DNA of 64,000 nt, from contig JAUCBJ010000751.1 in NCBI GenBank assembly GCA_032718475.1, forward strand, positions 1 through 64,000, written 5' to 3'. Below are positions 19,211 through 52,867 of the stretch, piece after piece. Within the stretch, counting starts at the first letter, position 1; the number at the start of each line of letters is the position of its first letter. Under the pieces are notes generated by a model. The model made no database searches and was not told the DNA's origin. It saw only the letters and a program-made list of their open reading frames with translations. The translations under genes were made by a program, and so were the position numbers. Source of the stretch: Nemertoderma westbladi (taxonomy: Eukaryota; Animalia; Xenacoelomorpha).

Positions 19211-19214
19211 GAGA

Positions 19215-26991: not shown

Positions 26992-27009
26992 TGGCGCAGT
27001 GTGTAGGAT
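26992..27009 (+). promoter_or_regulatory. tRNA primer-binding site, probably tRNA-Ser
   Basis: TGGCGCAGTGTGTAGGAT resembles the complement of a tRNA-Ser 3' end (TGGCGCAGTCGGTAGGAT, from memory). Confidence 0.7.
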
Positions 27010-27020
27010 AACTTGGGCCC

Positions 27021-27990: not shown

Positions 27991-29640
27991 GGCAACTGCG
28001 GCCGGGAACCCCATGAGGCGGGCTCGGAATGCCCCGCCAAGGGGGTCAAGTGCCACGGCTGTGGCAGGACGGGGCATATCAAGCGGATGTGCCGGTCCCG
28101 ATCCGCCACCAAGAAGAGGGTGTCCACAGTGTACCACTGCCAGAGTATTAGCAGCGTTGCCAACAATCAGGAAACAGCCTGCAAACTCTCTTATATCGCG
28201 GTGGGCCTGACGGACTCCGGGATCGGGAACCTCAAGGGGACGGTTCGTCACTCCCTCCCGGACAGTGGTGCGGCCGCTAACATCTTTAACCAGGGACTGT
28301 TTCTCCGGTTCGGAGGGCGACTCGACGACCTCCTCCCGCTTCGAGATGACGACAAGTTCGAGGCGGCCAACCGACTCCCCATGGCGGCCGTGGGGAGGTA
28401 CCCAGTGGAGATCAACTACTGCGGGACGACAGCGACCACTGAGCTGGTCATCTCTCCTGAGTCCGACGGACTGATCCTCTCGAAGAAGTCCATCCAGGAC
28501 CTGGACATCCTCCCGCGCACCTTCCCGGCGCCCCTACACAGCCGCGGAACCGTCGCTTCTGTTGCTCCGTCCCCGGCGATCCGCTCCCGGGACAATCTCC
28601 TCCGCGAGTTCAGCGACGTGTTTGACAACGACTCCGCGCCTCTTCCAATGATGCATGGCCCGCCCATGCGTATCCAGCTGAAGGACGGGGCCAAGCCGTT
28701 CCACGTCAACGGCGCAAGACCTGTCCCGTTCGCGATGCGGGATGAGGTGAAAGAACTCCTCGACAAGCTAGAGCGACGGGAAGTCATCACCCGGGTCGAG
28801 GAACCTACGGAATGGGCCCATCCGATGACGGTGGCGCCTAAACCCAACGGAGGACTGCGACTCTGCGTGGACCTCCGCCACCTAAACTCGCAGGTCCGAC
28901 GCCCCTATTACCCGACGCCGAATCCACGGACCGCAGTCGCCGGAGTCTCCACGACTGCAAAGATTTTCTCCGTGTTCGACGCAGCCAGTGGCTACTGGCA
29001 GGTTCCCCTCAATGAGGAATCCCAACTCCTCACCACCTTCGCGACTCCCTGGGGCCGGTACTGTCACACTCGTAGTGTGATGGGGCTGATCTCGTCCGGC
29101 GACGAGTTTAACCGTCGAGGCGACGACGCCATCCAGGGACTTCCTAACCTCATCAAGGTTGTAGACGATGTACTCCTCTACAACGATACAATGGAGGAAC
29201 ACATGGAGAACATCGCGAGGTTTATGGAGCGGTGCCGGACCTACGGGATCATGTTACACCCGGGGAAGGTTCAGTTTGCCCAGACCGAGGTTCGGTTCGC
29301 TGGGTACCTCGTCGGCGCCTCCGGGATAAAAGCCGACCCTGAGAAACTGAAGGCGATCGCCGGCTTCCCCTGCCCTGGGAACATCACCGATCTACGGAGC
29401 TTCCTCGGACTGGTGGAGCAACTCGCTCCGTTCTCAGCAGACATCGCTGCCGCGATGTCCCCGCTACGTCCCCTCCTAAGCACGAAGGCGACCTTCATCT
29501 GGACGGTGGACCACAAACGGGCCTTCGAGGCCACCAAGCTGGCTCTGACGTCACCGCCGGCCCTCGTCCCGTTCGACACGACCCGGGAGACCCGCCTAGT
29601 GACAGACGTGTCCCGGCTGAAGGGCCTCGGCTACGCCCTC
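27991..29640 (+). pseudogene. Gypsy/Mag Zn knuckles + protease + reverse transcriptase + truncated RNase H
   Basis: PDSGAAANI (PR); WAHPM...GLRLCVDLRHLN, FDAASGYWQVPL and VVDDVLL (RT); LVTDVSRLKGLGYALL (RNase H start). No integrase. Confidence 0.93.
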
Positions 29641-32600
29641 TTACTGGCACATAACTGTTTATAAACTAACCTTACTGGCACATAACTGTTTATAAACTAA
29701 CCTTATTGGCAGAGAACTGTTTATAAACTAACCTTACTGGCATATAACTGTTTATAAACTAACCCTACTGGCAGAGAACTGTTTATAAACTAACCTTACT
29801 GACAGAGAACTGTTTATAAACTAACCTTACTGACAGAGAACTGTTTATAAACTAACCTTACTGGCATATAACTGTTTATAAACTAACCCTACTTGCAGAG
29901 AACTGTTTATAAACTAACCTTACTGACAGAGAACTGTTTATAAACTAACCTTACTGGCAGATAACTGTTTATAAACTAACCTTACTAACAGAGAACAGTT
30001 TATAAACTAACCTTACTGGCACATAACTGTTTATAAACTAACGTTATTGGCAGATAACTGTTTATAAACTAACCTTACTGGCAGAGAACTGTTTATAAAC
30101 TAACCTTACTGACAGATAACTGTTTATAAACTAACCTTACTGGCAGAGAGCTGTTTATAAACTAACCTTACTGACAGAGAACTGTTTATAAACTAACCTT
30201 ACTGACAAAGAACTGTTTATAAACTAACCTTACTGGCATATAACTGTTTATAAACTAACCTTATTGGCAGAGAACTGTTTATAAACTAACCTTACTGGCA
30301 TATAACTGTTTATAAACTAACCCTACTGGCAGAGAACTGTTTATAAACTAACCTTACTGGCAGAGAACTGTTTATAAACTAACCTTACTGACAGAGAACT
30401 GTTTATAAACTAACCTTACTGACAGATAACTGTTTATAAACTAACCTTACTGGCAGAGAACTGTTTATAAACTAACCTTACTGGCACATAACTGTTTATA
30501 AACTAAACTTACTGGCACATAACTGTTTATAAACTAACCTTATTGGCAGAGAACTGTTTATAAACTAACCTTACTGGCATATAACTGTTTATAAACTAAC
30601 CCTACTGGCAGAGAACTGTTTATAAACTAACCTTACTGACAGAGAACTGTTTATAAACTAACCTTACTGGCAGATAACTGTTTATAAACTAACCTTACTG
30701 GCAGAGAACTGTTTATAAACTAACCTTACTGGCACATAACTGTTTATAAACTAACCTTATTGGCAGAGAACTGTTTATAAACTAACCTTACTGGCAGAGA
30801 ACTGTTTATAAACTAACCTTACTGACAGATAACTGTTTATAAACTAACCTTACTGGCAGAGAACTGTTTATAAACTAACCTTACTGACAGAGAACTGTTT
30901 ATAAACTAACCTTACTGGCAGAGAACTGTTTATAAACGAACCTTACTAGGAGAGAACTGTTTATAAACTAACCTTACTGGCAGAGAACTGTTTATAAACT
31001 AACCCTACTGGCAGATAACTGTTTATAAACTAAACTTACTGACAGATAACTGTTTATATACTAACCTTACTGGCAGATAACTGTTTATAAACTAACCTTA
31101 CTGACAGAGAACTGTTTATAAACCAACCTTACTGGCAGATAACTGTTTATAAACTAACCTTACTGGCAGAGAACTGTTTATAAACTAACCTTACTGACAG
31201 AGAACTGTTTATAAACGAACCTTACTGGGAGAGAACTGTTTATAAACTAACCTTACTGGCAGAGAACTGTTTATAAACTAACCTTACTGGCAGAGAACTG
31301 TTTATAAACTAACCTTACTGGCAGAGAACTGTTTATAAACTAACCTTACTGACAGATAACTGTTTATAAACTAACCTTACTGGCAGAGAACTGTTTATAA
31401 ACTAACCTTACTGGCACATAACTGTTTATAAACTAAACTTACTGGCACATAACTGTTTATAAACTAACCTTATTGGCAGAGAACTGTTTATAAACTAACC
31501 TTACTGGCATATAACTGTTTATAAACTAACCCTACTGGCAGAGAACTGTTTATAAACTAACCTTACTGACAGAGAACTGTTTATAAACTAACCTTACTGG
31601 CAGATAACTGTTTATAAACTAACCTTACTGGCAGAGAACTGTTTATAAACTAACCTTACTGGCACATAACTGTTTATAAACTAACCTTATTGGCAGAGAA
31701 CTGTTTATAAACTAACCTTACTGGCAGAGAACTGTTTATAAACTAACCTTACTGACAGATAACTGTTTATAAACTAACCTTACTGGCAGAGAACTGTTTA
31801 TAAACTAACCTTACTGACAGAGAACTGTTTATAAACTAACCTTACTGGCAGAGAACTGTTTATAAACGAACCTTACTAGGAGAGAACTGTTTATAAACTA
31901 ACCTTACTGGCAGAGAACTGTTTATAAACTAACCCTACTGGCAGATAACTGTTTATAAACTAACCTTACTGACAGATAACTGTTTATATACTAACCTTAC
32001 TGGCAGAGAACTGTTTATAAACTAACCTTACTGACAGAGAACTGTTTATAAACTAACCTTACTGGCAGATAACTGTTTATAAACTAACCTTACTGGCAGA
32101 TAACTGTTTATAAACTAACCTTACTGACAGAGAACTGTTTATAAACGAACCTTATTGGGAGAGAACTGTTTATAAACTAACCTTACTGGCAGAGAACTGT
32201 TTATAAACTAACCTTACTGGCAGAGAACTGTTTATAAACTAACCTTACTGGCAGAGAACTGTTTATAAACTAACCTTACTGACAGAGAACTGTTTATAAA
32301 CTAACCTTACTGACAGAGAACTGTTTATAAACTAACCTTACTGACAGAGAACTGTTCATAAACTAACCTTACTGACAGAGAACTGTTTATAAACTAACCT
32401 TACTGGCAGAGAACTGTTTATAAACTAACCTTACTGACAGATGACTGTTTATATACTAACCTTACTGGCAGAGAACTGTTTATAAACTAACCTTACTGAC
32501 AGAGAACTGTTTATAAACTACCCTTACTGGCAGAAAACTGTTTATAAACTAACCTTACTGGGAGAGAACTGTTTATAAACTAACCTTACTGGCAGAGAAC

Positions 32601-33201
32601 TGTTTATAAACTAACCTTACTGACAGATAACTGTTTATAAACTAACCTTACTGACAGAGAACTGTTTATGAACGAACCTTACTGGGAGAGAACTGTTTAT
32701 AAACTAACCTTACTGGCAGAGAACTGTTTATAAACTAACCTTACTGGCAGAGAACTGTTTATAAACTAACCTTACTGGCAGAGAACTGTTTATAAACTAA
32801 CCTTACTGACAGAGAACTGTTTATAAACGAACCTTACTGGGAGAGAACTGTTTATAAACTAACCTTACTGGCAGAGAACTGTTTATAAACTAACCTTACT
32901 GACAGAGAACTGTTTATAAAGTAACCTTACTGGCAGAGAACTGTTTATAAACTAACCTTACTGACAGAGGACTGTTTATAAACTAACCTTACTGACAGAG
33001 AACTGTTTATAAACTAACCTTACTGCCAGAGAACTGTTCATAAACTAACCTTACTGACAGAGAACTGTTTATAAACTAACCTTACTGGCAGAGAACTGTT
33101 TATAAACTAACCTTACAGACAGAGAACTGTTTATAAACTAACCTTACTGACAGTGAACTGTTTATAAACTAACCTTACTGGCAGAGAACTGTGTATAAAC
33201 T
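29640..33201. repeat. 31-bp satellite array, segment 4 (right edge)
   Basis: Same monomer with more private variants toward the edge; ends at ...GTGTATAAACT. Confidence 0.98.
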
Positions 33202-33492
33202 TTAGTAAGGTCGTCCAATGAATATTCCATTAGGACTCGACTGTAAACGCTTTTAGGGTTGGATTGCTCCGTCGGGCGCAATCCGCACAGTAAACGTTAA
33301 ACCGAGAGGAAGAAGGCGATGTAAGATTAGAGGAAGTTTTAGTGACGAATAAAATACAGAATACTTCAACCTAAAAATATAATAAATAATTAATTAACTT
33401 CACAAATTATGTAAAACGGCCCGAATACAAATATAACCGTTCACTAATGGCTTGTAGTTCTGACTCGCCCCACAAAATACATTGCAGTATAA

Positions 33493-33578
33493 AGGTCTGT
33501 ATAATGTGTGTAAGTTAGTCTACAGGTCTGTATAATGTGAGTAAGTTAGTCTACAGGTCTGTATAATGTGTGTAAGTT
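33493..33578. repeat. About 2.8 copies of a different 31-bp tandem repeat
   Basis: AGGTCTGTATAATGTGTGTAAGTTAGTCTAC repeated. Confidence 0.9.
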
Positions 33579-33650
33579 TAAGTACTGACCTCGCATTGAC
33601 TGCAATACTGGGCTGGTTCTCCCTGCTTCTTCCCATGCCATCTAACGGCT

Positions 33651-36600
33651 ATGTTCGACTTCCTCAAACCTTCTAAAGTTAATCGACAGTGCGTAAGCAA
33701 CCGCAGGAGGGCGTACCTAAACATAAGAGATACCGAGAGTAAACGCAGGATGGCGTACCTAAACATAAGAGATACCGTGAGTAACCACAGGAGGGCGTAC
33801 CTAAACATAAGAGTTACCGTGAGTAACCGCAGGAGGGAGTACCTAAACATATGAGATACCGTGAGTAACAGCAGGAGGGCGTACCTAAACATAAGAGATA
33901 TCGTGAGCAACCGCAGGAGGGCGTACCTAATCATAAGAGATACCGTGAGTAACCACAGGAGGGCGTACCTAAACATAAGAGATACCGTGAGTAACAGCTT
34001 ACAACGTCCGCCAATTGAGGCCGCTCGTGTCGACGGTATACTCGTTGAACCTCCGGACAATCGAGCGGATCTTGTCCGTCGTATGGTACACGAGGTCAAC
34101 CTACGCGCTAGACCTTTACCGAACTCATTTTATGGGATCAAAGACCATCCTTATTATGTTAATCTAACTCAATATTATATGGTGAAACCAGAAGATCCTA
34201 CACACAGTTTAAAGTTTCTACCACTGATAAATCCCCCCGATCTTGTCGAACTCGAACAACTACAGAAACATCTGGATCAGTTAGTGAAAGTAAACTCATT
34301 CAGAAAACCTTACAATGTTTCTAGAATAGAAAAAGATATAATTCCCCCATATAATCTCGATGGATTTATTAAAACTCGATTAGTCCATTGGAATCTCGAT
34401 GTATAATTCGAGGAAGAGAGAATACAGCGATATGGAGATGTAGAGACGTATACTACACATTATCTGAAGTATAGCGATCTACCTAGCGCTAGCGAACGCG
34501 CCACTTTTTGGCATCCGGTGGGTATGACCATAGAAAACGCCACCAAAGAGTGGAACGAAACTCTTAATGTTATCGAAATGTATGGAGTTGTCACTTACGA
34601 TAACGAAGGCAGCGTTCCGGTTGGAGAACTGGGAACTATGTGGATGATACACATACGTGGGCTAGCTGGTTCTACCCATGTGTTTACCCGAGCGTGTTCC
34701 GACGTGATCGATTATTCTTTTGAGACTCTCACAGAAATCCAAAAGAAACTCCGACATGGACAATTCGAACTCGCACAGCGTTACTTCACCGATACCGAGC
34801 GCAAACCAGCCATAGGTATAGATGGATCGATGTTACCCCAACCAGTGCTCGAGATGTTGTTTAACGAAAGAATCCTTAAAATCGGGTCAGCTGTTTATGG
34901 AGATCTCCAGAACGACTTCAGGAACATGGAGAATATCCCATATCCTTTCGTAGACACCCAGCTGATTGCTCCCTGGGCAGAAGGCCAAGGTTTCTTCCGC
35001 ACTATGTATGCCAATACATCCAGCGGCATCAATAAAGTACAACGAACCTCCATCGGACATCTTGCCTTTCAAGAATACGGATGGGATTTCAAAGTCGGAA
35101 ACCCTATCAACTATCAACAAGTATATGGAGATCATTATTCTTGATTATACTTCGACGGACCATTGACTGCACCTGGCGTCGTGTATAGCTTCATGAGTGT
35201 TCCACTTCATCCCTCATTAGCTATATACACTATCTTCGAAAACGCCGCACTTGCCGGTTGGTTAGCCGATGTGTGCAGTCGTACTATACGCGCCCATCCC
35301 TTGTTACTTGGAACCAAACTCGCCAAGCTAGATGAACACAATAAATTCATCCGCTTTGAATGTTTTAGGCGCTTTCTGACTCTGTTCCGTAACGTCGATA
35401 GTCAGTTCAAGGACCGTGATCTGACTAAGCTCAGCCTAAGAGACTCAGCGGCTGAGATGTTAGACAGTGCTGGATTTGCCATTTTCAAGGACGTTTGTAT
35501 ACAGAACTTACATTCCTCTGTCATACAAAGACCCCAAATCCCCACAGGTTATTCTATCGTGGAAGTTCAAACAGTGGGTTCGCTTGAGAAGACAGCTACA
35601 TCTACCTCAGCTATGCAATTGGAAGACAAACCAATATGCTTAGAATCCGAAGAGATTCAGCCCACAGCGCCCAGGAGCAGTGACAACGACTACGTCCTGG
35701 AATGGTATCAAGGTCCACAATGTCTCACCGCATACGACTATTGGCATGCCAATTATGTTTCTAGGAAACGTTGCCGATTATGCGCATCACGAGACCATTT
35801 CACACCGGTGGACTCCAGCATACCCTGCTCCTACTTCCAAGACCAACCTACAATGGAGATCTATTGTGCGTATTGTAGACTCAATAACTTACACATCTTT
35901 GCAGTCTGCCCTCAATTTATGACTCAATGCCATCATTGCCAGTTTAAAGGACACGCAAGTTTTGATTGCCCTTTCAACCGAGATCTGGAAAGCGTAGACG
36001 AAATGGTTGCCCTGCGCTACATCCGAGCCTGGGAAGGTAACGCGGATCTCCATTGTGAGTCACGTCATCGATACTACCCTGGAAGGAGTTTATGAAGGAG
36101 TTTATGCGTTTCACACGTATCTCTTTGCTTCCGTTGAGCAAAAATCTCGCACACCGAGCTACGAGCTAATGAAGCGCGTTGGCGAGAATATTTCGACCAA
36201 ATTTGTTCGAAAGTACCTCAGGAACATTAATCCTAATGACCTTAATTCCTATAACTTGATCAACTTCATCTGTCAAGATCCGGAATATGGTGACTTGTTC
36301 ATCAACTCGCATCCAGAACTACAGGAAGTTCATAGACGACCCTATGAATATAGAGCCCAAGAACGCGAGTTAGAAAGAACCGTCACACTGAGAAAATTCC
36401 TCACTACTCACGGTCCACCTACCGCTCTCGTGCAAACGACTCGTCACGGACCAGTAAGAGCTGCTGTCTTGAAACGCGCTCTAAAGGTTGTTCGACCTCG
36501 TTCCACTGAGGTTGATATCGATCAACCGGGTACCTCGACCGGCGGATACACCGACCGTAACCCTAAACCTTCCGATGCAATTGTATTGCACCCTTCACCC

Positions 36601-36702
36601 AGGAGTTATAGTCCTCCTAGTAAAGTGGCTCGCCCAAAAGAGAAAAGGACTCTTGCTAGCCTCAAAAAACTTCGTAAACGCCGTTCACGTAAGAAGGACT
36701 AA
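33651..36702 (+). pseudogene. Disrupted ~1000-aa accessory ORF: Arg-rich 14-aa repeats, DEDDy (WRN/EXD-like) 3'-5' exonuclease, Cys/His zinc knuckles, basic NLS-like tail
   Basis: ORFs at 33651, 33861, 34518 and 35163 share one frame, separated by single stops; one frameshift leads to 36007-36702. Motifs VVTYDNEG (ExoI), LPQPVLEMLFNERILKIGSAVYGDL...FVDTQ (ExoII region), PLHPSLAIYTIFE (ExoIII-like), CHHCQFKGHASFDC. Confidence 0.72.
33690..33996 (+). repeat. 42-bp coding tandem repeat, about 7 copies (VSNRRRAYLNIRDT)
   Basis: GTGAGTAACCACAGGAGGGCGTACCTAAACATAAGAGATACC units; one copy carries AGA>TGA. Confidence 0.95.
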
Positions 36703-36771
36703 TTGTTTAGAGTATTTTTATATTTTAGAAACTGTGATTTTTTATATTTTATAGAATTAAATCCCATTCTC

Positions 36772-36860
36772 TGGGAGCGGTGTAAAAGCTTTTGCAGACA
36801 TAACAAGTCATTTTTCCCCGCAATGCGCAGTGTAGGTTCTTTAGCGGACAGTAACATATT
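36772..36860 (+). mobile_element. PPT and start of a 3' LTR related to BEL family B (right end not determined)
   Basis: TGGGAGCGG|TGTAAAAGCTTTTGC...AGTCATTTTTCCCCGCAA aligns with 50014-50065; similarity fades after about 70 bp. Confidence 0.82.
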
Positions 36861-37992: not shown

Positions 37993-38337
37993 GCCGTGCC
38001 AGTGTAGAAGCGTGGCCCAGCTCCCGGGTAGAGAAGTGACACATCACCCCGTGCCCGTGTAGAAGCATGACCCTGCGCCCGCGTAGAGATGTGACCCGGC
38101 GCACGGGTAGAGACTCAACACATCACCCTGTGCCCATGTAGAAGCGTGACTCCGCACCCGTGTAGAAACGTGACCCTGCGCCCGTGTAGAGACGTGACCC
38201 GGCGCCCGGGTAGAGACGTGACACATCACCCCGTGCCTGTGTAGAAGCGTGACCCCGCGCCCATGTAGAAGCGTGACCCTGCGCCCGTGTAGAGGCGTGA
38301 CCCCGCGCCCGTGTAGAAGCATGACCCTGTGACCCGA
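37993..38337. repeat. GC-rich 24/34-bp minisatellite, left part
   Basis: GCCCGTGTAGAAGCGTGACCCCGC units interspersed with GTGACACATCACCC-containing longer units. Confidence 0.93.
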
Positions 38338-38344
38338 CAGGGTA

Positions 38345-39061
38345 TTGCCTGATAACTTTATAGAAGTAAAGGTGTCTGAGTCTGTACTCCCAGATATTTC
38401 CATTGGCGATATCTCCTTTGCAGAAGTGAAGGCTGCTGCAAAGAGCATTAAGACCAATCGTGCCAGTGGAGTAGATGGTGTTCCCCCTGAGGTCTTTAAA
38501 ATACCTGAGTGTTTAAAGCTCATCTATCCCATCATAGTAGACATGTACCGTACAACAAGAGTCCCACAAGAAATGAAAACAAATAAGTTGGTGCCAGTTC
38601 CCAAGAAGGGCAACCTAACACTCTATGGTTCCTTTCGGGGAATCTCATTGATCTCGATTGCTGTAAAGCTATACAATAGGATTCTATTAAATCGCATCAG
38701 GGATCCCATTGAGAGACTGCTCCGTGGAAATCAGAATGGGTTCCGTAAAGGTCGTGGGACCATGGAGCCCATTTTGGCACTTAGAAGGATAATTGAAGAA
38801 TTATCAAAAAAGAAAGACAGGCATCTGGCTGTTATCTTTGTTGACTTCTTCAAGGCCTTTGATTCAGTCTCACGCTCACGTATGTTCAGCATACTTTCAT
38901 TATATGGGATTCCTGATGAAATTATTGCAGCAATCAGATCAGTATACGATGGTTCGACAACATTTGTGTCTACTGTTGACGGTGACACAGAACCATTTGA
39001 AGTGTTATGGGGCGTCCTCCAAGGAGACACACTGGCACCATTCTTGTTCATTATTGTGGTT
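38345..39061 (+). pseudogene. LINE reverse transcriptase, N-terminal half
   Basis: RASGVDGVPPE, FRGISLIS, NQNGFRKGRGT, FVDFFKAFDSV, GVLQGDTLAPFLF. Confidence 0.95.
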
Positions 39062-40238
39062 TGTAAAAGCTTTTGCGGGATTAGCTAGTCATTTTTTCCC
39101 CGCAAAGTACTCTGTAGATGTTTTAACGGACATAAAAGCCGTTTCCTTACTGTACCAGTATTTTATTGGACATAAAAAGCTATTTTTCTGTATGTGTACT
39201 TTGGCGGACATAACTAGCAATCTTATGCCGCAATACGCGATAATACTCTCTACACAGTGTAGTTCAGGTTACGACATCTATCAGCTGATTTGGTGTACTC
39301 GTGGCATTTTTCTTTGTTCAGGCCCACTCTGTGCAATCACTCGACCAATCAGCGTGATTTTCAGTTTATTACACAGAGGCCTCCGGGAAATCGCGCAATG
39401 CATTATGGTTTATGTTTACCTTTTTTCCTAGGCCCAGAAGACCGGCTTTGGAATTTCTGTGTTTTCAGGCTTTAGCCCAACATTAGTAGGCTTAATTATA
39501 GAACGTATATCTGTTATCACGCAACATAACTCAAACCAATGATTACCTTTTAACAATCAAAACACCGCTTTTATACTGCTATTTACTGTCGGTTATTCAT
39601 TATATTAGTTGATGGAATATTATATTTGGAATATCGATAAATAATTACCAACCCTCAATCTTCTTGATATACTGAAGGTAAGAGAGACAGGTTACATATA
39701 ACGATTGCGACTTACATTAGAGTGGTTTTGAAGTGAATCTAATGCTATTTCATAGGCACTACAAGTATCAGTCGTTGTTCTCTTTATATGTGACTAAAAT
39801 TAGTGAAGGTCGGCAGATCGGTGTGCAGTATTGTGCAGTAGTGTGTATGATTGAGACTGATAACAAAGCATCTCCTAAAGAATGCGCCATATACGTGAAT
39901 CTATAGCCATCCCATTGCGTCTAGTTTAAGTCATAGCTCTGCTTACATATTTAGAGCGCCACGTCCTAAAGGAACTGTTAATATTTCCCGAAAGTGAACA
40001 ATATTTGTCAGAGATTATATATTACGATCAGTCGAATAATACAGTAGGCTTACACCGCAATAAGATTAAGCTTCCGAATCCAGTCTCCCGGGTATATCCA
40101 GCGGGTGAATGGTTGCGCATAGACTGGCTTCGGCTAATGTAGTGTATCCAATACTCGTCATAGGCTAAAGTCGATTTATTATCTAGAAGACATCCTAATT
40201 TGGCAGGTTAAACTGCTAAAGGTCTGAAAGCGCGAACA
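39062..40238 (+). repeat. 5' LTR of BEL family B
   Basis: Direct repeat of 50022-51198; about 13 substitutions counted by eye (~1%). Confidence 0.97.
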
Positions 40239-40248
40239 ATAACAGATA
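40239..40248 (+). promoter_or_regulatory. Non-tRNA primer-binding site of BEL family B (candidate self-priming PBS)
   Basis: ATAACAGATA abuts the LTR, has no TGG, and is the exact complement of TATCTGTTAT in the LTR at 39508-39517. Confidence 0.65.
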
Positions 40249-40835
40249 ATTTGTAGGCTGGACTGTTGTCTGACCGTTGTTAGGTCTGAACGGATTGCAG
40301 TGCATCTAGAGTGTATTTCCGATAAAGTGCCGGTTAGGAAAGTAGGGGCAGCCAGAGCTGTAAGGTAAATCCCCCAGAAAGAATAAGTCATACTACTAGG
40401 TTAGAACGCATACTAACTAACCATTTCGGAGTCTGCATGTCCTGTAGTTTATTTAGCCTTGATAGTGGTCTGCCAGCGTTTGGTCTGTACTTTGTTTGTG
40501 TAGTCTGTACAGGTACCGTAATATTTCTTATTCAGATAATTTATAGGCTAGATTGTTGTCTGGCTGTTGTTAAGTCTGAAGAGATTGTAGTGTGTGTAGA
40601 GTGTCTGTCCGATAAAGTACTAGTTAGGAACGTAGGGGCAGCTAGAGCTGTAAGGTAAACCCCCCCCCCCCCCCCCGAAAGAATAAGTCGTACTACTCGG
40701 TTAGAATGCATACTAACTAACCATTTCGGAATCTGCACATACTGTAATTTATTTGGGCTTGATAGTAGTCTGCCAGCGTTTGGTTTGTATTTTGTTTGAG
40801 TAGTTGTACGGGTAGCGTAATATTTATTATTCAGA
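40243..40835. repeat. ~290-bp tandem dimer in the 5' leader of family B
   Basis: CAGATAATTT...CCGATAAAGT...AGAGCTGTAAGGTAAA...GAATAAGTC occurs at about 40243-40533 and 40534-40835. Confidence 0.88.
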
Positions 40836-42155
40836 GTTTATGCGATTATTCGCAACATTCATATCCCCAAGTTTATTCCTACAGTAATTGTGCTTGTTAT
40901 ATATACCGTTATAGTTAAATTAACCCCGGTACTACATCAGGGCTGCTTGGTGTAGGTAAAGACTGGTGATTTTGTGCACCGGTCACTCCGGCAGATACCG
41001 TGGTTCTTTTAGCTGTTCAAGTATTTTAACTGCTGATTATTTGTTATACGAGTACTTGTACCTAATCTAGGGTTTAGCGTACAGTGCTTTCCGAAGGTAA
41101 TTTAGTGTAGGCAGTATATTTGTGTTGTAAAGTGGTTAATAGGCACATTGGTTCTGGTAGACCGCGGTAATTAACTTCTAGGTAGGAACACTCCATGAAA
41201 CATAATGTAGTACTTATAGCGATACGGCTATAAGTCGTCAGACGGTGGTATTTTCCTATCTGGACAACGCAATATATTTACTACTGTTTATTATTTTCAA
41301 ATACCGTAGTATCCTGTCCGTTGTAATAACCAGATATTCTAACCCTTTGTTAGGCTGGTTTGTAGATTCCCTGTAAAATTACCCTAAAAATTCGTACGTG
41401 TAATTTTTTGTGTTTATTTAGAGATTGTAATCTCACCCCGAATTGTACGTAATTTGTAGTAATAAGTAACTTAGGTAAATTAGAATTATTTGTTTTAGTG
41501 TCCAACAAGTAGCACTTCAATGAGAGCGCACAGCTTCTGTGTAGTGACTTCTTCCCAGAAATAATAACATTTATTTCAAAGATTGACAAAACCCATAAAA
41601 CGGGTATATATATTATAAATCAACTCCAACGATTTATAAATAGTAGGCCTGCCATACAACAATTAGGTCTCAATATCAGTTGGACTACTGCTCAAATAAC
41701 GGTAATAAAGTAAGTTAAAGTAACCAAGTAACCCCTAAAATTCAGAAATTCAATTATTCTAAAATAATTGATATACCGGTATTTACAATAGGCTTATTAT
41801 ATTTATTTCTATAAATTTAGGCTGAAATTATACCGGTATTCTGTAATTAATTCTAGCCCATAATTATACTTATATATACTATAGGTGTAAGCGGTATACC
41901 GGTATTCTCAATAGGCCTATTATATATTTATATATATTTGGGCTAAAATTATATACCGGTATTCTGTGACAAATCTAGTCTGTAATAATACTTATATATA
42001 TACTATAAGCATACCGGTATTCTAATATATTATATATATCACGCTACACTGAGTAGCAGTATCGGTAATTAATTACTAGGCTAACAGTTGATACTGAATT
42101 ACTAGACTTGCTTTAACTGTAATATAGCAGTAGGCATTCAAATGTACAAACAAAC

Positions 42156-45100
42156 ATGTCTGCTACTAAGCAAAACCTGTCAGACAGTCTCTTAGATACA
42201 ACCATCTGTGACCCAGATAGGAGTGTGGAACGTGTGAGACCGAAGTTCAACTCACCTCCTACTGTAAGAAAGGTCATCCCTCCAGTAGTAATATCAGACC
42301 CCAGGCTAGTCCAACACCGTAGGTCTATTATAGGCACTAGAGCTCAGGTCAAGCGAGACCAAGAAGCAGCGGAACAGCAGCAACATCCGAGCCGAGAACT
42401 TATTGCTCAGCGGTTCGACCGCTCCAGTAGTGCAGATACTGTAGAGCTGACACCCGAGTGCGGAGCAAAGATGGTGGATGCGGTTTATTCGGATCCCCTT
42501 CTCATCCTTCCTGCAGCCGAACTCACTAGAGTATTGATTGCGGTGGAGGAACACCAGATTGATTGGGCAAGAAGTAAGCGATCGACCAAGGATAGTTATG
42601 CGGGATATACAAAGGAAGAACTGAAGTCTATTGTCGAGTCGCAATGGAACTTCCCCGCACCCGGACTCCCGTTTGACTTATCGGAAGCTGCCTGGGAAGA
42701 CATACATAGGATGGGAGTAACAAAGGAAACCATCGATCCAGCTGTATGGAAGAGGTCAGCAGCCGGATACGTACAGGGATTCTTCAGCTCTATGGAGCGA
42801 TTAGAGGAACAACTGTTTAGACAACCACAAGGACCTCAAGAGCAGGGAGAGCTGCTTTATCAAGTTAGAGAAAGAATTCTAAGAATCAGACTAATCTTAT
42901 CTGCCATTGAGGAGGCTTCGAAAAGAAGACAAGACACGTCGTTGCAAGTTGCCATAAAGACTTGGTTACAGCGGGTGAGTCTCCAAGTTCAAAGAACTGT
43001 CCCGTGGAAATCTCAGTTAGATGAGCGCTCAACCCTTGGAGAATCAACAGACGCTACCTTTTCCCAAGTGGAAAGTGAAGCGACAGCAGAGAAACCGCAT
43101 AAGAGGGATGCTATTGACATCTATCTGTCAGACTATCAACGCTTTGTAGGAGATTAAGAGTTGAGGAGAAGGCTGGAGGGGCTTAGCCCTAATAGTGAAG
43201 GAGCCAAACTTGTGTTGGATGCAATCGATGTGGATATGAGAGCTGCGAACCAAGCTAAATTTGATGAACGCCTCCGCATCACTAGAGTCCAAGAAGAACA
43301 AGTAAAGAAAAAACGTATAGAAGATAGAAAGACAGCAGCAGCGGCAGTGGCAGTGGCAGAAGCGGAAAGAAAAGCGGCAGAAGTGGATATAAAAGCGGCA
43401 GAGGCAGTGGCAGAGGCAAAAGCGGCAGCGACAGAGGCAAAAGCGGCAGCTGCAGCAGTAGAAGCGGAAAGAAAAGCGGCAGCGGCAGAGGCAAAAGCGG
43501 CAGCTGCAGCAGTTGCAGCGGAAAGAAAAGCGGCAGCGGCAGAAGCGGAAAGAAAGGCGGCCGAAGCGGAAAGAAAAATAGCAGTGGCAGAAGCAGAACG
43601 AAGAGCAGCTGAAGAGACCACCCAACTAGAGTTAGAAAATATTCAAGAGAATCAAGACTGCATAAATAAACAGTTAACAGCTAGTAATATGCAGATGATG
43701 AATCAATCTACTCCCAAAAGGCAGGGATATACATCATCTGAAGAAGGCGATACCACCGATCCTGAAGGCGGAGGAAATAGATCTCGTCTAGGTAGGCGTA
43801 GAAGGACATCTCACCGTCACAAATTGCCTGATTTGCCCCCAGCTGTTAAAAGGCAACTAACTAACACAGACTTAGGTAGTACAGAACCCACAGACCAAAT
43901 AATTAAAATAGAAAGACTCCCTACTATAGTAGATGAGCCTGAAATAATTAGGCCTGTTCTTGAAATCACCCCTTTGGTGATAGAGACACCTGTGCTCCCA
44001 GAACCTATCTCTAAATTCCCTCTTCACAGCACTAAGCTACCTGTGCCCCACAGAACCACCCCTGAAAATGTTCATGTCCTGGACTCCGAGCGAAATATTA
44101 ACGATTTGTCGCCGTTGTCCCTCGTCCGCCCGCTACAACGTTGGCGCCTCCCGCTTCGGCGGTCGAGTGGGTAGATGAGGGACGACGGGAGATGGGTCTC
44201 CTGCTCGGGCAGCTGAGGGAACACCGTTCCCGCTCCTCTCAGCAAGTCCAGGAGATGGAGGGGACTGTGCAGCAGTTAAAGGGAACAATTAGAGAGAGTA
44301 GGTTAGAGTTGCAAGAAGTGCAGCAAAGTATCGCGTTAGAACGCGATAAATTAGTAAATACACAAAAGGGTATACCACCACCCCCTGTAACAATGTGTCA
44401 ACCTGTTAGGTCTGAAGTATTTCATGCGCAAGGTGTGGAGCCTACACGCATCTATACTGCTAGTGAAGTGGAAACTCCTATACTAAACCCTATTAAGGGT
44501 AATCATAAACCTGTTGACAATGATATTCCATATAGACTGGATAATAACCCGAGAAATTTATATACCGATAACTCGATATTAAATAACACGATGGCCCAAG
44601 AAAGTTTTACGCGTCAAATGGCTAGAACCGAAGCCCGTCAAGCGGTAAAGGTGGGAGAGATAGTCAAGTTCAATGGAGATGAGATGAAATGGTTACCTTT
44701 TAATGAATATTACAAAGATAACATACAGAACTCTGTACTATCTAACGGAGAGAAACTTAGATTCCTCATCGAGTGCTTGGAAGGATCTCCCAAGTTAATG
44801 GCGTTAAAGTTTATTGGACATCCAGATGGATTAAGACAAGTTTGGGATACACTGAACATCAGGTATGGTAATAGAACTAACATAGCTAGGTATTTATATG
44901 CAAAATTAATGGCGCCCCGAAAGTTTCTTAGCAGCGGGATTATAGAGATTTCAGACGAGATTCAGGAGATCTGTAGACAACTAGATTGGTTAGGTAAGTC
45001 TCATGAATACCAGAATTCTATGGTTGTAGGAGCCTTAGCATCTAATTTGCCCAAGGGCGGAGGAGGTACATGCTGGGACAAGACAGTGTTATATATGATG

Positions 45101-46930
45101 GAACAACAACGAAGAGATCCTACCATGGCTGATCTCATGTCATTCTTAGATGGAGAGGTAAAATTACAGCTCCTAAAGCAGTCCAGAGAGAAGACACCGG
45201 AAAATAAGGTAAGTGAGAAACCCGTTTCTAGGAGAAAGGTAATACCAGTGTGTTATACAGACGACGGCGAAAGCCAGGCTTCTCAAGAGGAAGACAGCGG
45301 GAAAGACACTGAAAGATCTTACTATGACAACACAGCGCCTAAGGACGTAAGTAAATTCAAGTCTCGGACCAATGACAGGAGAGAACAGGTAAGAAAAACT
45401 CCTCCTACGTCTCCTAAGAGAATTCAGGTAAGAAAGCCTGAAGAAAGAACGAGTGTGCACAATGTTATTCAAAATAAGGTAAGTAACATCAAACCGAAAT
45501 GTGTGCTATGTGACGGGACCCACCGTTTGAATATGTGTGATGAATTCCTAAAGAAATCATTAACGGAGAGACGGGAAGTCATGTGGGATAAGCGGTTGTG
45601 TTATAATTGCCTCAGACAAGGACACCAAAGGCGAACCTGTTACTCCGACACAAGGTGTGCAAAGTGCGGTGCGAAACATCATATCTTATTGCACACTGAA
45701 TTCGAGCGAAACAGCCAGAGTCAGGTAAGTGATTCTGAACTACATGTCCAATTCAGTGATGTGAACGACACTGACCAAAGTTCTGAGATGGAAGGATTCT
45801 ATACGGATGAATTCTCCGACGAAAATGAATCCTGTTACATGATAAATACCGCAGTGTATCGAGCACTCACGTATGAAAAAGACACCGACAGCGACTTCAC
45901 CCTAACTAATCCTGATCGACAACCATCTTGGAAAGCGCCAACTTCCAATGTAGGAATCCGAGAATTTCCTGTAGTACAATTAAGGGTCCACGGACCTAAA
46001 AGGAGTTATATAGTGAACGCCCTCCTTGACTCCGGTAGCACAGGAACATTCATCGACAAAGAACTAGCCGAAGATATCTTTGCTGGACAACCCAAGTTCC
46101 GAACTAAGCTTAACATGTCAGGAATTATGCAGGTTTGGAAATCTACCGTAATAGCTGATTATTATGTAGGCGCATTGTCCACCCCCCAGGATGAACTAGG
46201 AGAACACAGCCTAAGGTCAGTAAAAATGGTAGCGATAAAGAACTTCGCTACCAGCCAAGTGGAACCTTATAACTGGGATGAGGACGATTTCACCCAGCAG
46301 TTTGAAATACCTAGATTCAACACCAATTACCCTGGAGTTCAAATACTCATCGGTCAAAACACGCATGAAGCGCTCGAGACATTGGAGAAACAGCCTGCTC
46401 AACCGCAACCATTACAAGCTTATGCGGGAAGAACTAGAGTGGGTTGGTACTTTACTGGCCCTTCCCGTAGAACTCTTATGGAAAGATTACCAAAAGAACA
46501 GGTATATCAATTAAGTGAACGGGAAGTGGAGAGCAGTGAAGTTGACGACCCAACTGAGAGAACACCATACTCCTCAGATAATGACGATATCAACTCCAAT
46601 GTAGATCAATGGAGACATTGCCCCGAGACGATCAATCTAGCCGACATCGCTTCCAGAGGAGCAACTCCTCAAGAACTGATAGATACTCCAGCGTGGTTAG
46701 GTGGACCCGACTTCCTAAGTAAAGAAGATGAATGGCCTTCTCATCTTACCCCGGCTAAGATTAGACAGGCCAAGGGAGCGGAGAAAGTAACACAACAACT
46801 CAATCGCCCAGCTGGTCGTTTATATTTACTGGAAAGAGACCGAAAACTGTCTGGAAACTATGGAAGGCAACACACTCTTCCCACGACTACCTCCCTAATC
46901 CAACAAATATCTAGGGACTCCATAACGTAA
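42156..46930 (+). pseudogene. BEL gag-protease with an RNase H tail remnant (one in-frame stop at 43155-43157, one frameshift near 44140-44170)
   Basis: Gag IVKFNGDEMKW...EKLRFLIECL; knuckles CVLCDGTH...C, CYNCLRQGH...C, CAKCGAKHHILLH; protease ALLDSGSTGTF; then QWRHCPETINLADIASRG...WLGGPDFL. Confidence 0.92.
43325..43615 (+). repeat. Ala/Glu/Lys-rich coding repeats (AEAERKAA), predicted coiled coil
   Basis: Low-complexity GCAGAAGCGGAAAGAAAAGCG units. Confidence 0.85.
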
Positions 46931-48578
46931 CAACATACGGAGTGGGTGTGTGACTATATTATTTTATATTTATTTTTATTATTTCATATTATGTATGTAT
47001 TATTATGTAAATTTATTATAATCGTTTTATTTAATTTTATTTAGTAGAAATGTTATTTTAGCGATTATTTAGTAGATTAGTGCTATATATATTAGTGTTT
47101 ATTACTTAATTACTTATATATTATATATTTAGTGCGACGGCGAGAAATAATTATTCTCTCTTTCCTTACTGTCCGTATTACATTACAAATACGTAACTAC
47201 GGTAAGATGAAATCTCCGTACTTATTAAAGTACAATAAAGCTCCTACTATATTTAAGTATTATTGGTAGGCAGAGTATTAGGATTGCAAAGTTCAGATCC
47301 TCGTGTCTCGGCTAAGCCAAGCTCTGGGAAGACCTTGGAAATGACTTGCCTCTTCACACTGACATTGCTTCGTGCGATATTGCTCTCATGCCGTATATTA
47401 AATAATACATATAGTAGCGTGATGTCCCTTTAACAGTAGCGTATAACGCAAAATAAATCTGTTAAACCCTTTGACCATCTGCAATTCTAGTCGATTAAGA
47501 TATCGCGGCACCCACCAATATACTTGAAAGACAAATTTCTAGAATCAGTGGTTAACATCCCCAGACAAGTTCTGGAATAAACTGGTGCCCATCCTAAATA
47601 TTAATTATTAATATTTACAAAATTTGTCAAATTTAGATCCTTTAAAATTCTAGTCGATTAAGATATCGTAGCACTTACTGATACTCTTAAAAAGAACAAA
47701 TTTCCTAGAATCAAGGATCCCAGTCCCCAGATATGTTCTGGAATAAAATTGTGTCTATTTAACATTAAATAATAAAATTTACGGGAATAAATTTAAATTC
47801 ATATTTTAATGAATTCAATAAATTGTTATTTTTATACAATTTATAACATTCCCAAAATTCCTTTAATTAATAGATCATGGGAGCGGAGATTCACTCTATT
47901 AAGTGTATTAGTGTACGAGAATCTCCAATATATAGTCAATAGCCGATAAAATTCATAAAATCATGTATAAAGAAGATATTGACAATTAAAGAATTACTAT
48001 TAAATAGCATCCCAGATCTGTATGCATGAGAATTACCCTAATTCTACCGCTAGCTTTCCACAATGTCACCATAACAACAACCACGCTAGAATTAGAAGTG
48101 AGTAAAAGAACAATAGAAAGCTTCCCCCATTGAATAGCATACGGAATAAATAGCACACTGCTAGTATCTAAGGATACATAATAATAACGTGACATTCTGG
48201 AAGGCACTTGTCTAACGGACAAATGACCCGAATGTGTGATAGAATGCGTACAATTTGTGACAATTACGTGGAATTTGTGCATTTGTAGGTGAATGTTACT
48301 ACTAAGGTGTGTTTACAGTAGCGAGTCGCAATTGTGAAAGTAGCCCTAACTCTCCAGTAAGAACCTGAAGTAAATCTAAGCCTTTGGGACGGACGGTGGA
48401 GTGACTCGCGCTGGTTGTTGTGGTCGTTGTGCAGCTACGACGTTGGCGATAGGCACATCGGCGAAAGTACACCAGCGCTGAGGATCTTGCGCTGTCCGGG
48501 GGCCGAGAGGGGTAGGCAGCGACGCCCGCTAGCCTAAATATCAACTCATTATAATATTGATAAACTCATATAGCAGCT

Positions 48579-49943
48579 ATGACTCAGTTGATAGAAGATG
48601 ATCTTGGTATCAGGGAGAAATATACTCTACCGTTGCAGGCGTTTGTTGATAGCTTGATACGCAGTGACGCTAGTCCAACTACTACGGAGGACGATGGTCG
48701 TTATATCGAACCGCCAATGTCCCAGGAGCAACTTACGCGTGAATTGGACTATCGAAAATTCACTGCTCGCTATACGCATTGTAATGGTACGTATATGGAC
48801 TTCTTAACTACTGGCCATCCTATCGATTTATACGATACGGACGATATCGACACCGAAAGGGAAATGGTCCTATTTAAATATCGTACCCAGCGGAGTCGGA
48901 ACGATAAATTGAGAATCGAATGCGAAAATTATATTCGAAATCGACTCGAAAGAGAAGACGTTAAAGAACCGGATAAACGCGGTAACTCCAACGTATATTT
49001 GGAATTATTGAGAGAAACATTGTAAAACCGAATAAATATCACCCGCGTTTCTCCTACAAGACGTGCGTCTTTGGTATTATTGCAATGAATGCCCAAGACC
49101 CAACCAACAAACGGAAAGACATAACCATCCACGGAGACGTTGCTTTAAACACGGTTTTACTCACTATATTTATGGGAGTTTTGAGCGAAACTTGTTCGAT
49201 GTATCACCTACGCTCGCTCGACTCAAACGATCCTTAAATAAACCTATGATCAGAGTACCGGAATACTCGGTCAGACCTCCTCATTCCCTATTTAGACCTC
49301 ATGATTCTTGATCCTAATAGTATCACGGATCCTCTCGAACTGTACTCACTGTTCAAAGATCTAGTGTTACGTTACCCGAACAGTTAGTCGGTGGCACTCC
49401 GGTTGTGGGCTCCCTTAAATATTCACCCATCTTACTTAGTCGGATTGGGACGCGGACATCTAATATCGCCATTCAACCGTATCATCGTCCCTGTTTAACC
49501 CGATACAACCTGTCACCGAGGCGGAGGAAAGAGTTATACGAAACGCGTTGGACACTATTCGTCAAAAGATCTGAAAATGAACCTACAATGGTTTAGAGAA
49601 ACGTAAATTGCAGTAGCAAGTACAAGCGATAAACGAATTAACTTTATCTCAGTTCGATCAGGAAATTCAGAATCTCTAAGAGGATATCGAACTTGGACGA
49701 CCCTATTCTCTGCAAGAGTTTTGGACGAACGCATCCAACGATAAGCGGAGGAAAATCAGCTCGAGGAGAAGCATATCGAAATGGGTGAGACATCGACCGT
49801 AACCCTAAACCTTCTGATGCAATTGTATTGCACCTTCACCCAGGAGTTGCAGCCCTCATAGTAAAGTGGCTCGCCCCAAAGAGAAAAGGACTCTGGCTAG
49901 CCTCAAAAAACTGCGTAAACGCCGTCCGCGCAAGAAAAACTAA
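48579..49943 (+). pseudogene. Degenerate accessory ORF of unknown function in the 3' region of family B
   Basis: Coding-like composition. Fragments 48579-49025 and 49063-49311 (CNEC...CFKH). Ends in RTLASLKKLRKRRPRKKN*, homologous to the end of the 36007-36702 ORF. Confidence 0.6.
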
Positions 49944-50021
49944 CTGTTTAGAGTATTTTTATATTTTAGAAACTGTGATTTTTTATATTTTATAGAATTA
50001 AATCCCATTTTCTTGGAGCGG

Positions 50022-51198
50022 TGTAAAAGCTTTTGCGGGATTAGCTAGTCATTTTTTCCCCGCAAAGTACTCTGTAGATGTTTTAACGGACATAAAAGCC
50101 GTTTCCATACTGTACCGGTATTTTAGTGGACATAAAAAGCTATTTTTCTGTATGTGTACTTTGGCGGACATAACTAGCAATCTTATGCCGCAATACGTGA
50201 TAATACTCTCTACACAGTGTAGTTCAGATTACGACATCTATCAGCTGATTTGGTGTACTCGTGCCATTTTTCTTTGTTCAGGCCCACTCTGTGCAATCAC
50301 TCGACCAATCAGCGTGATTTTCAGTTTATTACACAGAGGCCTCCGGGAAATCGCGCAATGCATTATGGTTTATGTTTACCTTTTTTCCTAGGCCCAGAAG
50401 ACCGGCTTTGGAATCTCTGTGTTTTCAGGCTTTAGCCCAACATTAGTAGGCTTAATTATAGAACGTATATCTGTTATCACGCAACATAACTCAAACCAAT
50501 GTTTACCTTTTAACAATCAAAACACTGCTTTTATACTGCTATTTACTGTCGGTTATTCATTATATTAGTTGATGGAATATTATATTTGGAATATCGATAA
50601 ATAATTACCAACCCTCAATCTTCTTGATATACTGAAGGTAAGAGAGACAGGTTACATATAACGATTGCGACTTACATTAGAGTGGTTTTGAAGTGAATCT
50701 AATGCTATTTTATAGGCACTACAAGTATCAGTCGTTGTTCTCTTTATATGTGACTAAAATTAGTGAAGGTCGGCAGATCGGTGTGCATTATTGTGCAGTA
50801 GTGTGTATGATTGAGACTGATAACAAAGCATCTCCTAAAGAATGCGCCATATACGTGAATCTATAGCCATCCCATTGCGTCTAGTTTAAGTCATAGCTCT
50901 GCTTACATATTTAGAGCGCCACGTCCTAAAGGAACTGTTAATATTTCCCGAAAGTGAATAATATTTGTCAGAGATTATATATTACGATCAGTCGAATAAT
51001 ACAGTAGGCTTACACCGCAATAAGATTAAGCTTCCGAATCCAGTCTCCCGGGTATATCCAGCGGGTGAATGGTCGCGCATAGACTGGCTTCGGCTAATGT
51101 AGTGTATCCAATACTCGTCATAGGCTAAAGTCGATTTATTATCTAGAAGACATCCTAATTTGGCAGGTTAAACTGCTAAAGGTCTGAAAGCGCGAACA
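50022..51198 (+). repeat. 3' LTR of BEL family B
   Basis: Preceded by PPT-like TTGGAGCGG and followed by TSD TGGTT. Confidence 0.97.
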
Positions 51199-51203
51199 TG
51201 GTT

Positions 51204-52097
51204 GACTATGTTCTACGCATGTCCTTAGATCATCATAATGATGATGGGGTGATGATAACTCCACCTACTGGCTCCAGAAGTCGAGGAAATCCTGCCAAGT
51301 ACCTAACTGATCTAGACTTTGCTGATGACTTAGGAGTACTCTCAGAATCATTAGAGGGAGCCCAACGGCTCCTCAGCTCATTAGAACATGCTGCTTCTAG
51401 TGTTGGTCTTTTTATTAACTCCAGAAAGACCAAAATTCTGACAGTTAACTTTGAAAGTCCTCAGCAAGTCTCTGATCGGATGAGCATAAGCTCAAAGGAT
51501 GGTATGCTTGAGCATGTGGACGACTTCTGTTACCTGGGATCATGGATCCGGAAGTCAGATGAGGACCTTCGAATACGTAACGGAATGGCATGGGCAGCCT
51601 TGAATAGGCTTTCCAGGATTTGGAAGTCACCGAGAATTAATCGGAAACTTAAGGTCCGATTATTTAGAGCAGCAGTAGTTCCAGTACTCCTCTACGGGAG
51701 TCCATGCTGGGCTCTAACTGCTGAGGACACCAAATCTCTGGATGGCACATTCACAAGAATGCTATGCCGGGTTCATTGTGTCAAGTACAATGCACACATC
51801 TCCAACCAGACACTATATAACATTGGAGGTGTATCATTGGTTCCCCCAAGCTTGACACTAGAACAAAATCGCCTCCGCTTTGCAGGACATTGCTTTCGCC
51901 GTGACGACCAGCCAGTGCATAATCTTGTACTTTGGCAGCCTCATGGAGTGAATAAGCATGGTGGACAGCCCATGACTTTCTTGAGACGCATCTTAAAGGA
52001 CACTGGCCTTAAAGATGCGGATGATCTAGCAAATGTCATGGGTGATAGGGAGTTGTGGCAGTGCAATTTTGTTGACAAGCCAGCACAGCATTCTTAA
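51204..52097 (+). pseudogene. LINE reverse transcriptase, C-terminal half (RTE-like)
   Basis: DLDFADDL, INSRKTK, VDDFCYLGS, KVRLFRAAVVPVLLYGS, RLRFAGHCFR. The listed ATG start is an artefact of the LTR junction. Confidence 0.95.
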
Positions 52098-52148
52098 AAA
52101 TGCAGCTGCAATGCTGCATGCCGATCCTAGTAGTAGTAGTAGTAGTAG

Positions 52149-52867
52149 CCCGAGTAGAGACGTGACCCCGCGCCTAGGTAGAGACGTGACACATCACCCA
52201 GTGCCCGTGTAGAAGCGTGACCCCGCACCCGTGTAGAAACGTGACCCTGCGCCTGTGTAGAGACGTGACCCTGCGCCCGGGTAGAGACGTGACACATCAC
52301 CCTGTGCCTGTTAGAGACGTGACCCCGCACCCGTGTAGAAGCGTGACCCTGCGCCCATGTAGAGACGTGACCCCGCGCCGGGTAGAGACGTGACACATTA
52401 CCCCGTGCCCGTGTAGAAGCGTGACCCCGCGCCCGGGTAGAGACGTGACACATCACCCCGTGACTGTGTAGAAGCGTGACCCCGCGCCCATGTAGAAGCG
52501 TGACTCTGCGCCCCTGTAGAGACGTGACCCAGAGCCCGGGTAGAGACGTGACACATCACCCCGTGCCCATGTAGAGATGTAACCCCGCGCCCGAGTAGAA
52601 CCATGACCCTGCGCCCGTGTAGAGACGTGACACATCACCCCGTGTAGAAGCGTGACCCTGCGCCCGTGTAGAGACGTGATCCCGCGCCCAGGTAGAGACG
52701 TGACACATCACCCCATGCTCATGTAGAAGCTTGACCCCGCGCCCATGTAGAAGAGTGACCCCGCACCCGTGTAGAAGCGTGACCCCACGCCCGTGTTGAG
52801 ACGTGACCCCGGGCTCGGGTAGAGACGTGACACATCACCTCGTGTAGAAGCGTGACCCCGCGCCCGG
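52149..52867. repeat. GC-rich 24/34-bp minisatellite, right part
   Basis: Same units as 37993-38337. Confidence 0.93.

Follow-up and report, generated by a model that had tools for sequence, protein, structure and literature searches.

In the accessible portions of the Tf1 literature, the first 11 bases of this retrotransposon pair with the primer-binding site, the RNA is cleaved by RNase H after the 11th base, before the 12th (PMC7175516), and a pretzel structure is described (10.1101/2022.12.06.519325); self-priming is likewise described for Tj1 and Tf2 in the parts available of PMC4600332 and PMC5341516. Tcn1, a gypsy element, and the copia elements TAR, Houba and Osr-1 are listed as predicted self-primers in the accessible section of PMC6317226, where complementarity of at least 10 bp located 0-5 bp past the LTR is the criterion, and an excerpt of PMC3601003 treats hairpin priming as possibly ancestral. 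The ICTV profile of the Belpaoviridae describes priming by a host tRNA at an 18-nt site for tRNA-Arg or tRNA-Gly (PMC8742986). Neither PBS nor tRNA occurs in the accessible text of the Sinbad paper (PMC554778) or of a BEL/Pao survey (PMC3118150), and the available parts of PMC4558846 and PMC6934838, which deal with small elements, describe no splice-built or self-primed BEL element. Our literature search, which covered freely accessible main texts, found no report of BEL/Pao self-priming or of a splice-built primer.

Here we analyse a window of 64,000 nucleotides from Nemertoderma westbladi (contig JAUCBJ010000751.1, forward strand), in which a first-pass annotation had noticed that two BEL/Pao elements, here called A and B, each carry a 10-nt complementarity between the sequence after the LTR and the LTR itself. 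As Tf1, Tf2 and Tj1 are described in the accessible sources, element B resembles these members of the Tf1/sushi group in having no tRNA site and in having, after the LTR, a site that would pair with roughly 11 nt of LTR sequence from the same element. Tf1/sushi elements are Ty3/gypsy chromoviruses, whereas the elements considered here have BEL/Pao gag, Pao peptidase and DUF5641 domains, with no chromodomain match on the integrase of A; B would work like Tf1 yet is not a member of the Tf1/sushi group. We estimate a probability of about 0.72 that B is self-primed in the manner of Tf1, its RNA supplying the primer from the 5' end.

Results

Structure and insertion of element B

Element B, a BEL/Pao copy of recent origin, occupies 39062-51198 and lacks reverse transcriptase and integrase. 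Its 5' LTR of 1177 bp (39062-40238, plus strand), which begins with TGT and ends with ACA, is 98.9% identical to the 3' LTR (50022-51198), which is preceded by a short purine-rich tract (50015-50021). The 5' target-site duplication, TGGTT (39057-39061), is repeated at 51199-51203, and empty-site contigs that join 39056 to 51199, with five letters that fit either side, are present in three of four public runs (20 in X1, 9 in X3 and 1 in X5); the fourth run, X4, gave no contig for this joint and one for a neighbouring joint. Both ends of B are confirmed by contigs joined across the insertion. The near-identical LTRs and intact target duplication indicate that this copy was recently reverse-transcribed with its present junction. 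B splits a LINE-type reverse transcriptase frame (38333-39088 and 51180-52097), which is flanked on both sides by arrays of a 24-bp minisatellite (38039-38329 and 52148-52866). In public contigs the B family is both plentiful and varied, and none of the public runs containing it is catalogued as RNA. Contigs aligned to B show about 2900 variable sites; the 40 of these that were listed include none in the primer or its site, a sample too small to be informative.

The leader of B contains a tandem duplication of about 300 bp (40243-40835; TRF, 83% matches) that begins within the predicted primer-binding site. Both 300-bp units hold one donor-like and one acceptor-like motif each, so the leader may be spliced, and a strong donor-like motif lies in the LTR at ~39680. 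The gag-protease region (42123-46930) is broken into three reading frames: gag matches DUF1759 (E=2e-12) and shows three Cys-His knuckles in translation, the match of the protease to Asp_protease_2 is weak (E=0.015), and the final short piece resembles the RNase H end of element A. When element A was compared with B by tblastn, matches were limited to gag, protease and 46607-46732, reverse transcriptase and integrase were not found, and the internal deletion appeared large. Without these two enzymes, B must be copied in trans.

Self-complementarity at the junction of element B

The central observation of the first-pass annotation holds: the 10 nt that abut the 5' LTR, ATAACAGATA (40239-40248, plus strand), the predicted primer-binding site, are the exact reverse complement of TATCTGTTAT at 39508-39517, the predicted self-primer, which is contiguous and intron-less and has a copy in the 3' LTR at 50468-50477. 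As had also been stated, these 10 nt contain no TGG; the nearest TGG downstream is 20 nt from the end of the LTR. When the LTR was shuffled with dinucleotide counts preserved, such a match appeared at offset 0 in 23 of 5000 shuffles and at offsets 0-4 in 74 of 5000. Shuffling the post-LTR 30-mer (n=600) gave p=0.005, and of the 9763 internal 10-mers of B, 17 find a partner within the LTR. The match is nevertheless only 10 nt long and A/T-rich, and it lies 731 nt from the LTR end, more than twice the longest distance in the relatives described below, in which the acceptor lies 52-200 nt from the LTR end and the match offset is 0-4 (6 in one case). On its own the match in B is suggestive, B being without a close relative and without a place on a tree; the strong evidence comes from relatives of A.

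It is possible that the match in B is a chance one, that B is a deleted element that lost, or never showed, a tRNA site, and that self-priming is confined to the clade of A. We consider this unlikely. B does have a large internal deletion and a duplication starting inside the site, 74 of 5000 shuffles match at offsets 0-4, the distance from match to LTR end is atypical, the B lineage is unplaced and has an exonuclease-like extra frame, and tRNA-type sites exist near A, as locus L026 shows. Set against these points are the p-value of ~0.005 at offset 0, the recent reverse transcription of a copy bearing this junction, the triplet found at the edge of the match (see below) and the presence of such a match in eight of nine elements with fixed LTR ends.

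Two other features that had been marked in the LTR of B lend no support to priming. The CCAATCA box (39345-39351, plus strand) is present, but it lies ~160 nt upstream of the primer and is not tied to the predicted start. The U5 hairpin (40199-40220, plus strand) is also present, with a stability not above chance (z=-1.7); in 25 relatives the mean z was -0.04, with 1 of 25 below -2. We found no canonical TATA motif ~30 nt upstream of the B primer, and no AATAAA anywhere in the LTR. A splice-built primer in B was considered and rejected: the sole alternative is weak and, at 9 nt, shorter than the contiguous match. The site of one relative (L057:91-105) resembles that of B; 8 nt of it match the end of its own exon 1, and the contig has no acceptor. 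A host primer common to B and L057 was ruled out, because the L057 site matches 8 nt ending at the element's own donor.

Element A and other elements of the window

Element A lies on the minus strand, with a 5' LTR of 688 bp (12432-13119) and a predicted primer-binding site, GTTTGGGAAA, at 12422-12431. Like B, it has a 10-nt match at offset 0 (p=0.012); the matching stretch, at 12768-12759, directly follows a pyrimidine tract and CAG. There is a good acceptor before this match, yet no donor extends it. The LTRs of A and B are unrelated, as had been supposed, the best similarity they share having only E=0.34, but the identical geometry ascribed to the two elements is not borne out, since the match lies 337 nt from the LTR end in A and 731 nt from it in B. 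Element A carries the full pol domains, among them reverse transcriptase and integrase, and its identity to most of the BEL proteins found is 40-46%. Its named matches come from corals, echinoderms, a hemichordate, molluscs, a brachiopod, a nemertean and fish, and it groups with BEL elements of aquatic animals.

Arrays of a 31-bp satellite (69-3187, 13120-26756 and 29640-33201) hold element A, with its 5-bp duplication CAGAT, a second copy of A (~16726-19210) that is truncated and includes the 5' LTR and the primer site, and a gypsy element, also truncated. The latter, which the first-pass annotation had labelled Mag and taken as a tRNA-primed control, has a tRNA-type site starting with TGG (26992-27011, plus strand). 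The TGG at 26992 does follow ACA, but a second LTR was absent in a self-comparison of the sequence, and with one LTR seen the boundary at 26992 is an inferred one. Elsewhere in the window are a direct duplication of 181 bp (52964-53141 and 56051-56231) and a diverged inverted pair (57426-57583 and 60751-60907).

Relatives with fixed LTR ends

Starting from an alignment of 52 sequences, we obtained 80 metagenome loci, the best among 559 that were confirmed, and 21 loci from prokaryote assemblies. The 80 metagenome loci together with A form 67 clusters at 85% identity. The 21 BEL/Pao loci in prokaryote genome assemblies (L081-L101) most likely reflect contamination from animal hosts; several of them have two LTRs as well as target duplications. 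Seven loci, with A and B, make up a set in which the LTR end was fixed by LTR-LTR alignment; L010 and L069, whose ends are ragged, and L013 and L027, in which the repeat reaches the contig end, were left out. Scores in this set were judged against 600 shuffles per element.

In these relatives the best plain matches often have a pyrimidine tract and YAG directly before their start, and they become longer when this acceptor is joined to a GT donor further upstream. Eight of the nine fixed-end elements have 10-15 nt of self-complementarity, five when joined in this way (L003, 11 nt; L009, 15; L012, 12; L041, 15; L048, 11) and three as contiguous matches of 10 nt each (L054, A and B). The ninth, L026, scores 4 and has a tRNA-type TGG site (L026:56-80). 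Control scores were 3-6 for 3' flanks and at most 9 for swapped sites. The idea that the YAG before the match is a mere initiator was dropped, as donors extend the match and L050 (below) shows the exact junction.

Since the joining rule had been devised on these loci, it was applied unchanged to five new fixed-end loci. Two of the five reach 11 nt, L082 when joined and L085 as a contiguous match, and three do so if introns of up to 700 nt are allowed (L088 being added). L086 and L089 fail the rule; L086 has donor and acceptor in place and one mismatch in both LTRs, and L089 reaches 11 nt with a looser acceptor, a result viewed post hoc.

A survey of 48 families

Among the 80 metagenome loci, 52 have a usable upstream region and, with A and B, represent 48 families. 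Matches of at least 10 nt were found in 22 of the 48 and of at least 11 nt in 16, compared with 6.3% and 1.8% of 2256 swapped pairs, although the families are related and these counts are not independent events. The other 26 families fall below 10 nt, and only some of these misses are explained by a missing part of the LTR, the contigs of L014/L015, L017, L024, L062 and L077 being without the part that would bear the donor. L053, L032 and L058 each contain the donor predicted from the sequence of their site; A does not, nor does L070, which has an acceptor match and no good donor.

In 20 of the 25 positive relatives the match is joined across a GT-AG intron inside the LTR, and in five it is contiguous. 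The introns are 71-612 nt long, and exon 1 contributes 3-9 nt. Match lengths are 10 nt in three relatives, 11 in 16, 12 in three, 13 in one and 15 in two; chance matches cut at 10 would peak at 10, whereas the observed peak is at 11, the length given for Tf1 in the accessible text.

Two comparisons weigh most among the results of the wider survey. Compared with its relative L046, L050 is missing precisely the 168-nt GT-AG intron, which makes the primer of L050 contiguous. L082 and L088, whose reverse transcriptase regions are 90% identical, differ at the end of exon 1 (CAC versus TAA) and in the site (GTG versus TTA), so that two base changes in exon 1 are both compensated in the paired bases of the site. 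This pattern bears on the possibility that a host RNA, such as a tRNA half or fragment or another small RNA, acts as primer and that the LTR match is a side effect. Priming by half-tRNAs is known in Ty1/copia lineages, according to the accessible section of PMC6317226, but here the sites vary freely among families, each matching its own LTR, swapped pairs rarely match, and L082 and L088 change both sides together; a host primer therefore seems very improbable.

When the positives were placed on a reverse transcriptase tree, joined and contiguous forms proved to be intermixed over a broad clade that excludes insect and arachnid elements, the contiguous forms occurring in five places. L026 falls near A among the self-primed families, on long branches, a position that may reflect either a reversal or a misplacement. 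Taken together, these patterns argue strongly for self-priming in the clade around A, which we regard as very probable, and with somewhat less assurance we think it likely that splicing builds the primer there.

Predicted primer start and RNA fold

The transcription start of B had been predicted at ~39506-39508; it is better placed at 39507-39509 (plus strand), where an A-Y-R triplet lies at the 5' edge of the match. Of 25 relatives, 18 have such a triplet at the edge of the primer, the background being 12% (14% in the LTR of B), with the proviso that the motif was defined after the data had been seen and that the families are related. Together with the peak of match lengths at 11 nt, the triplet gives indirect support to the idea that the primer would be the 5' end of the transcript. 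One relative, L006, has TATATAA 31 nt upstream. A rise in A/T content near -30 is weak (0.73 versus ~0.58), and there is a similar rise near -40.

Primer and site of B are paired in the minimum-energy fold of 39508-40290, with a mean pair probability of 0.56 and a duplex energy of -9.4 kcal/mol; the mean pair probability is 0.87 for A, and values for the natural contiguous forms are 0.95-0.99. The loop of ~720 nt in B is unlike Tf1. The Tf1 pretzel consists of three duplexes, and in a crude test with 50-nt windows side helices of the Tf1 type were at chance level in our elements (p<0.05 in 3 of 46 tests; p=0.54 and 0.95 for B).

The pairing could have been selected for something other than self-priming in cis, such as priming in trans by a short transcript that is spliced and stems from an LTR (a solo LTR, for instance), or control of packaging, translation or splicing. 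Pairing in cis and in trans would leave the same sequence pattern, a trans primer would avoid the problem of how the intron in the 3' LTR escapes splicing, and both the failure to find Tf1 side helices and the wide separation of the partners in B would be in keeping with it. The duplex, however, ends 0-4 nt (once 6) from the LTR edge, where minus-strand synthesis must begin, and it takes the place of the tRNA site with a length that matches that of Tf1. We therefore judge this explanation to be improbable, a little more so than a chance match in B, and favour self-priming by the RNA's own 5' end.

Placement of element B

The first-pass annotation had drawn A and B together into one clade, a placement that B does not allow, having no reverse transcriptase and only distant best matches; it may lie outside the clade of A. 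No close relative of B was found: the 17 distant matches all carry PF05380 and PF03564, identities among the 150 matches listed are 26-39%, and the best matches are 21-42% identical over the matched stretches. Two pattern scans of viral contigs for relatives of B gave 3 and 18 pattern matches, none of which was confirmed. In a tree from which P0140, lacking a usable reverse transcriptase stretch, was omitted, the reverse transcriptase regions of B's better matches lie both inside and outside the clade of A, which leaves B unplaced, and having no close relative it also lacks covariation. B has LTRs within the range of 0.2-1.2 kb, TG...CA ends, a target duplication and a BEL-type gag and protease; as it has none of the listed tRNA sites, it is filed as BEL/Pao-derived by homology, departing from the priming described for the family.

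The window also contains the 3' part of a B-related element (33200-36850), which is 88.6% identical to the 3' end of B and has extra frames. Its LTR starts at 36781, and similarity to B ends after ~70 bp. One extra frame (34407-35141) resembles a 3'-5' exonuclease in ESM Atlas features (PF01612, score 0.95), with no Pfam match, and a search for relatives of the extra frame found none; 35145-36092 has a weak zinc knuckle. Some Cer elements of C. elegans carry such a 3'-5' exonuclease.

Discussion

We have found that many BEL/Pao elements related to element A combine, directly past the LTR, a site of about 11 nt with a matching stretch in the LTR itself that is often interrupted by an intron. 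The clade-wide, tRNA-independent BEL/Pao priming proposed by the first-pass annotation is thus well supported in relatives of A, and does not extend by placement to B, which we could not assign to that clade. Our estimate for B balances its own p-value, the triplet at the edge of the match and the prior supplied by other BEL elements against a short, A/T-rich match, the distance of 731 nt, the lack of AATAAA and the lack of relatives. Element B would be an intron-less, 10-nt version of the self-primer of the relatives. More broadly, we lean towards the view that in a large aquatic branch of BEL/Pao a self-primer assembled by the spliceosome has replaced the host tRNA, that intron-less lineages arose repeatedly when spliced RNA was reverse-transcribed, and that B, as a distant lineage, carries self-priming into a second BEL branch.

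In the mechanism that we propose, transcription would start where the match begins on its 5' side, or right beside that point (39507-39509 in B). Families with an intron would form a partner of ~11 nt by splicing a tiny first exon, contributing 3-9 matching nt, to exon 2; intron-less families such as B would carry this partner ready-made. The 5' end of the RNA would fold back onto the site directly past the LTR, and cleavage where the duplex ends on its 3' side, by the element's RNase H as in Tf1, would free a 3'-OH from which reverse transcriptase, supplied in trans in the case of B, would copy U5 and R before jumping to the 3' LTR. The RNA copy of the 3' LTR would then restore the primer, the intron and U3. 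Since nothing but the sequence 3' of the primer would be copied into strong-stop DNA, the 3' LTR of the RNA must be the source of both primer and intron; because the intron is upstream of the copied stretch, it would survive if the 3' copy were usually unspliced. Occasional splicing of the 3' copy would yield intron-less lineages.

The elements described here differ from known systems in several respects. The accessible accounts of Tf1 do not describe an LTR intron that splits the primer, whereas most relatives of A have one. Both B (10 nt, offset 0) and A fall within the definition applied to Tcn1 and TAR in the available section, namely at least 10 bp at 0-5 nt past the LTR, but Tcn1, TAR, Houba and Osr-1, as presented there, are plant and fungal gypsy or copia elements, unlike B and A, and a definition based on a contiguous match would miss the intron-split primers seen here. 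With the tRNA-primed Belpaoviridae (Tas, BEL and Pao) B shares an LTR length of 0.2-1.2 kb, homology in gag and protease, and the purine tract, but the 18-nt site for a host tRNA is absent in B, in A and in most relatives.

Penelope-like elements, which use a non-LTR mechanism, have introns in their terminal repeats and are thus retroelements that keep an intron there. The introns in Penelope-like terminal repeats are not known to build a primer. A splice-built primer implies first exons of a few bases and would explain how an intron can persist in the LTR, and for each family it predicts an exact start site and junction. Such LTR elements would be misjudged by annotation tools that rely on a tRNA site or on an uninterrupted match.

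If our reading is correct, splicing licenses reverse transcription in these elements, tying their copying to RNA processing. Self-priming would then occur in a third LTR superfamily, beside gypsy (Tf1/sushi) and copia (TAR), which bears on the question of which came first, self-priming or priming by tRNA.
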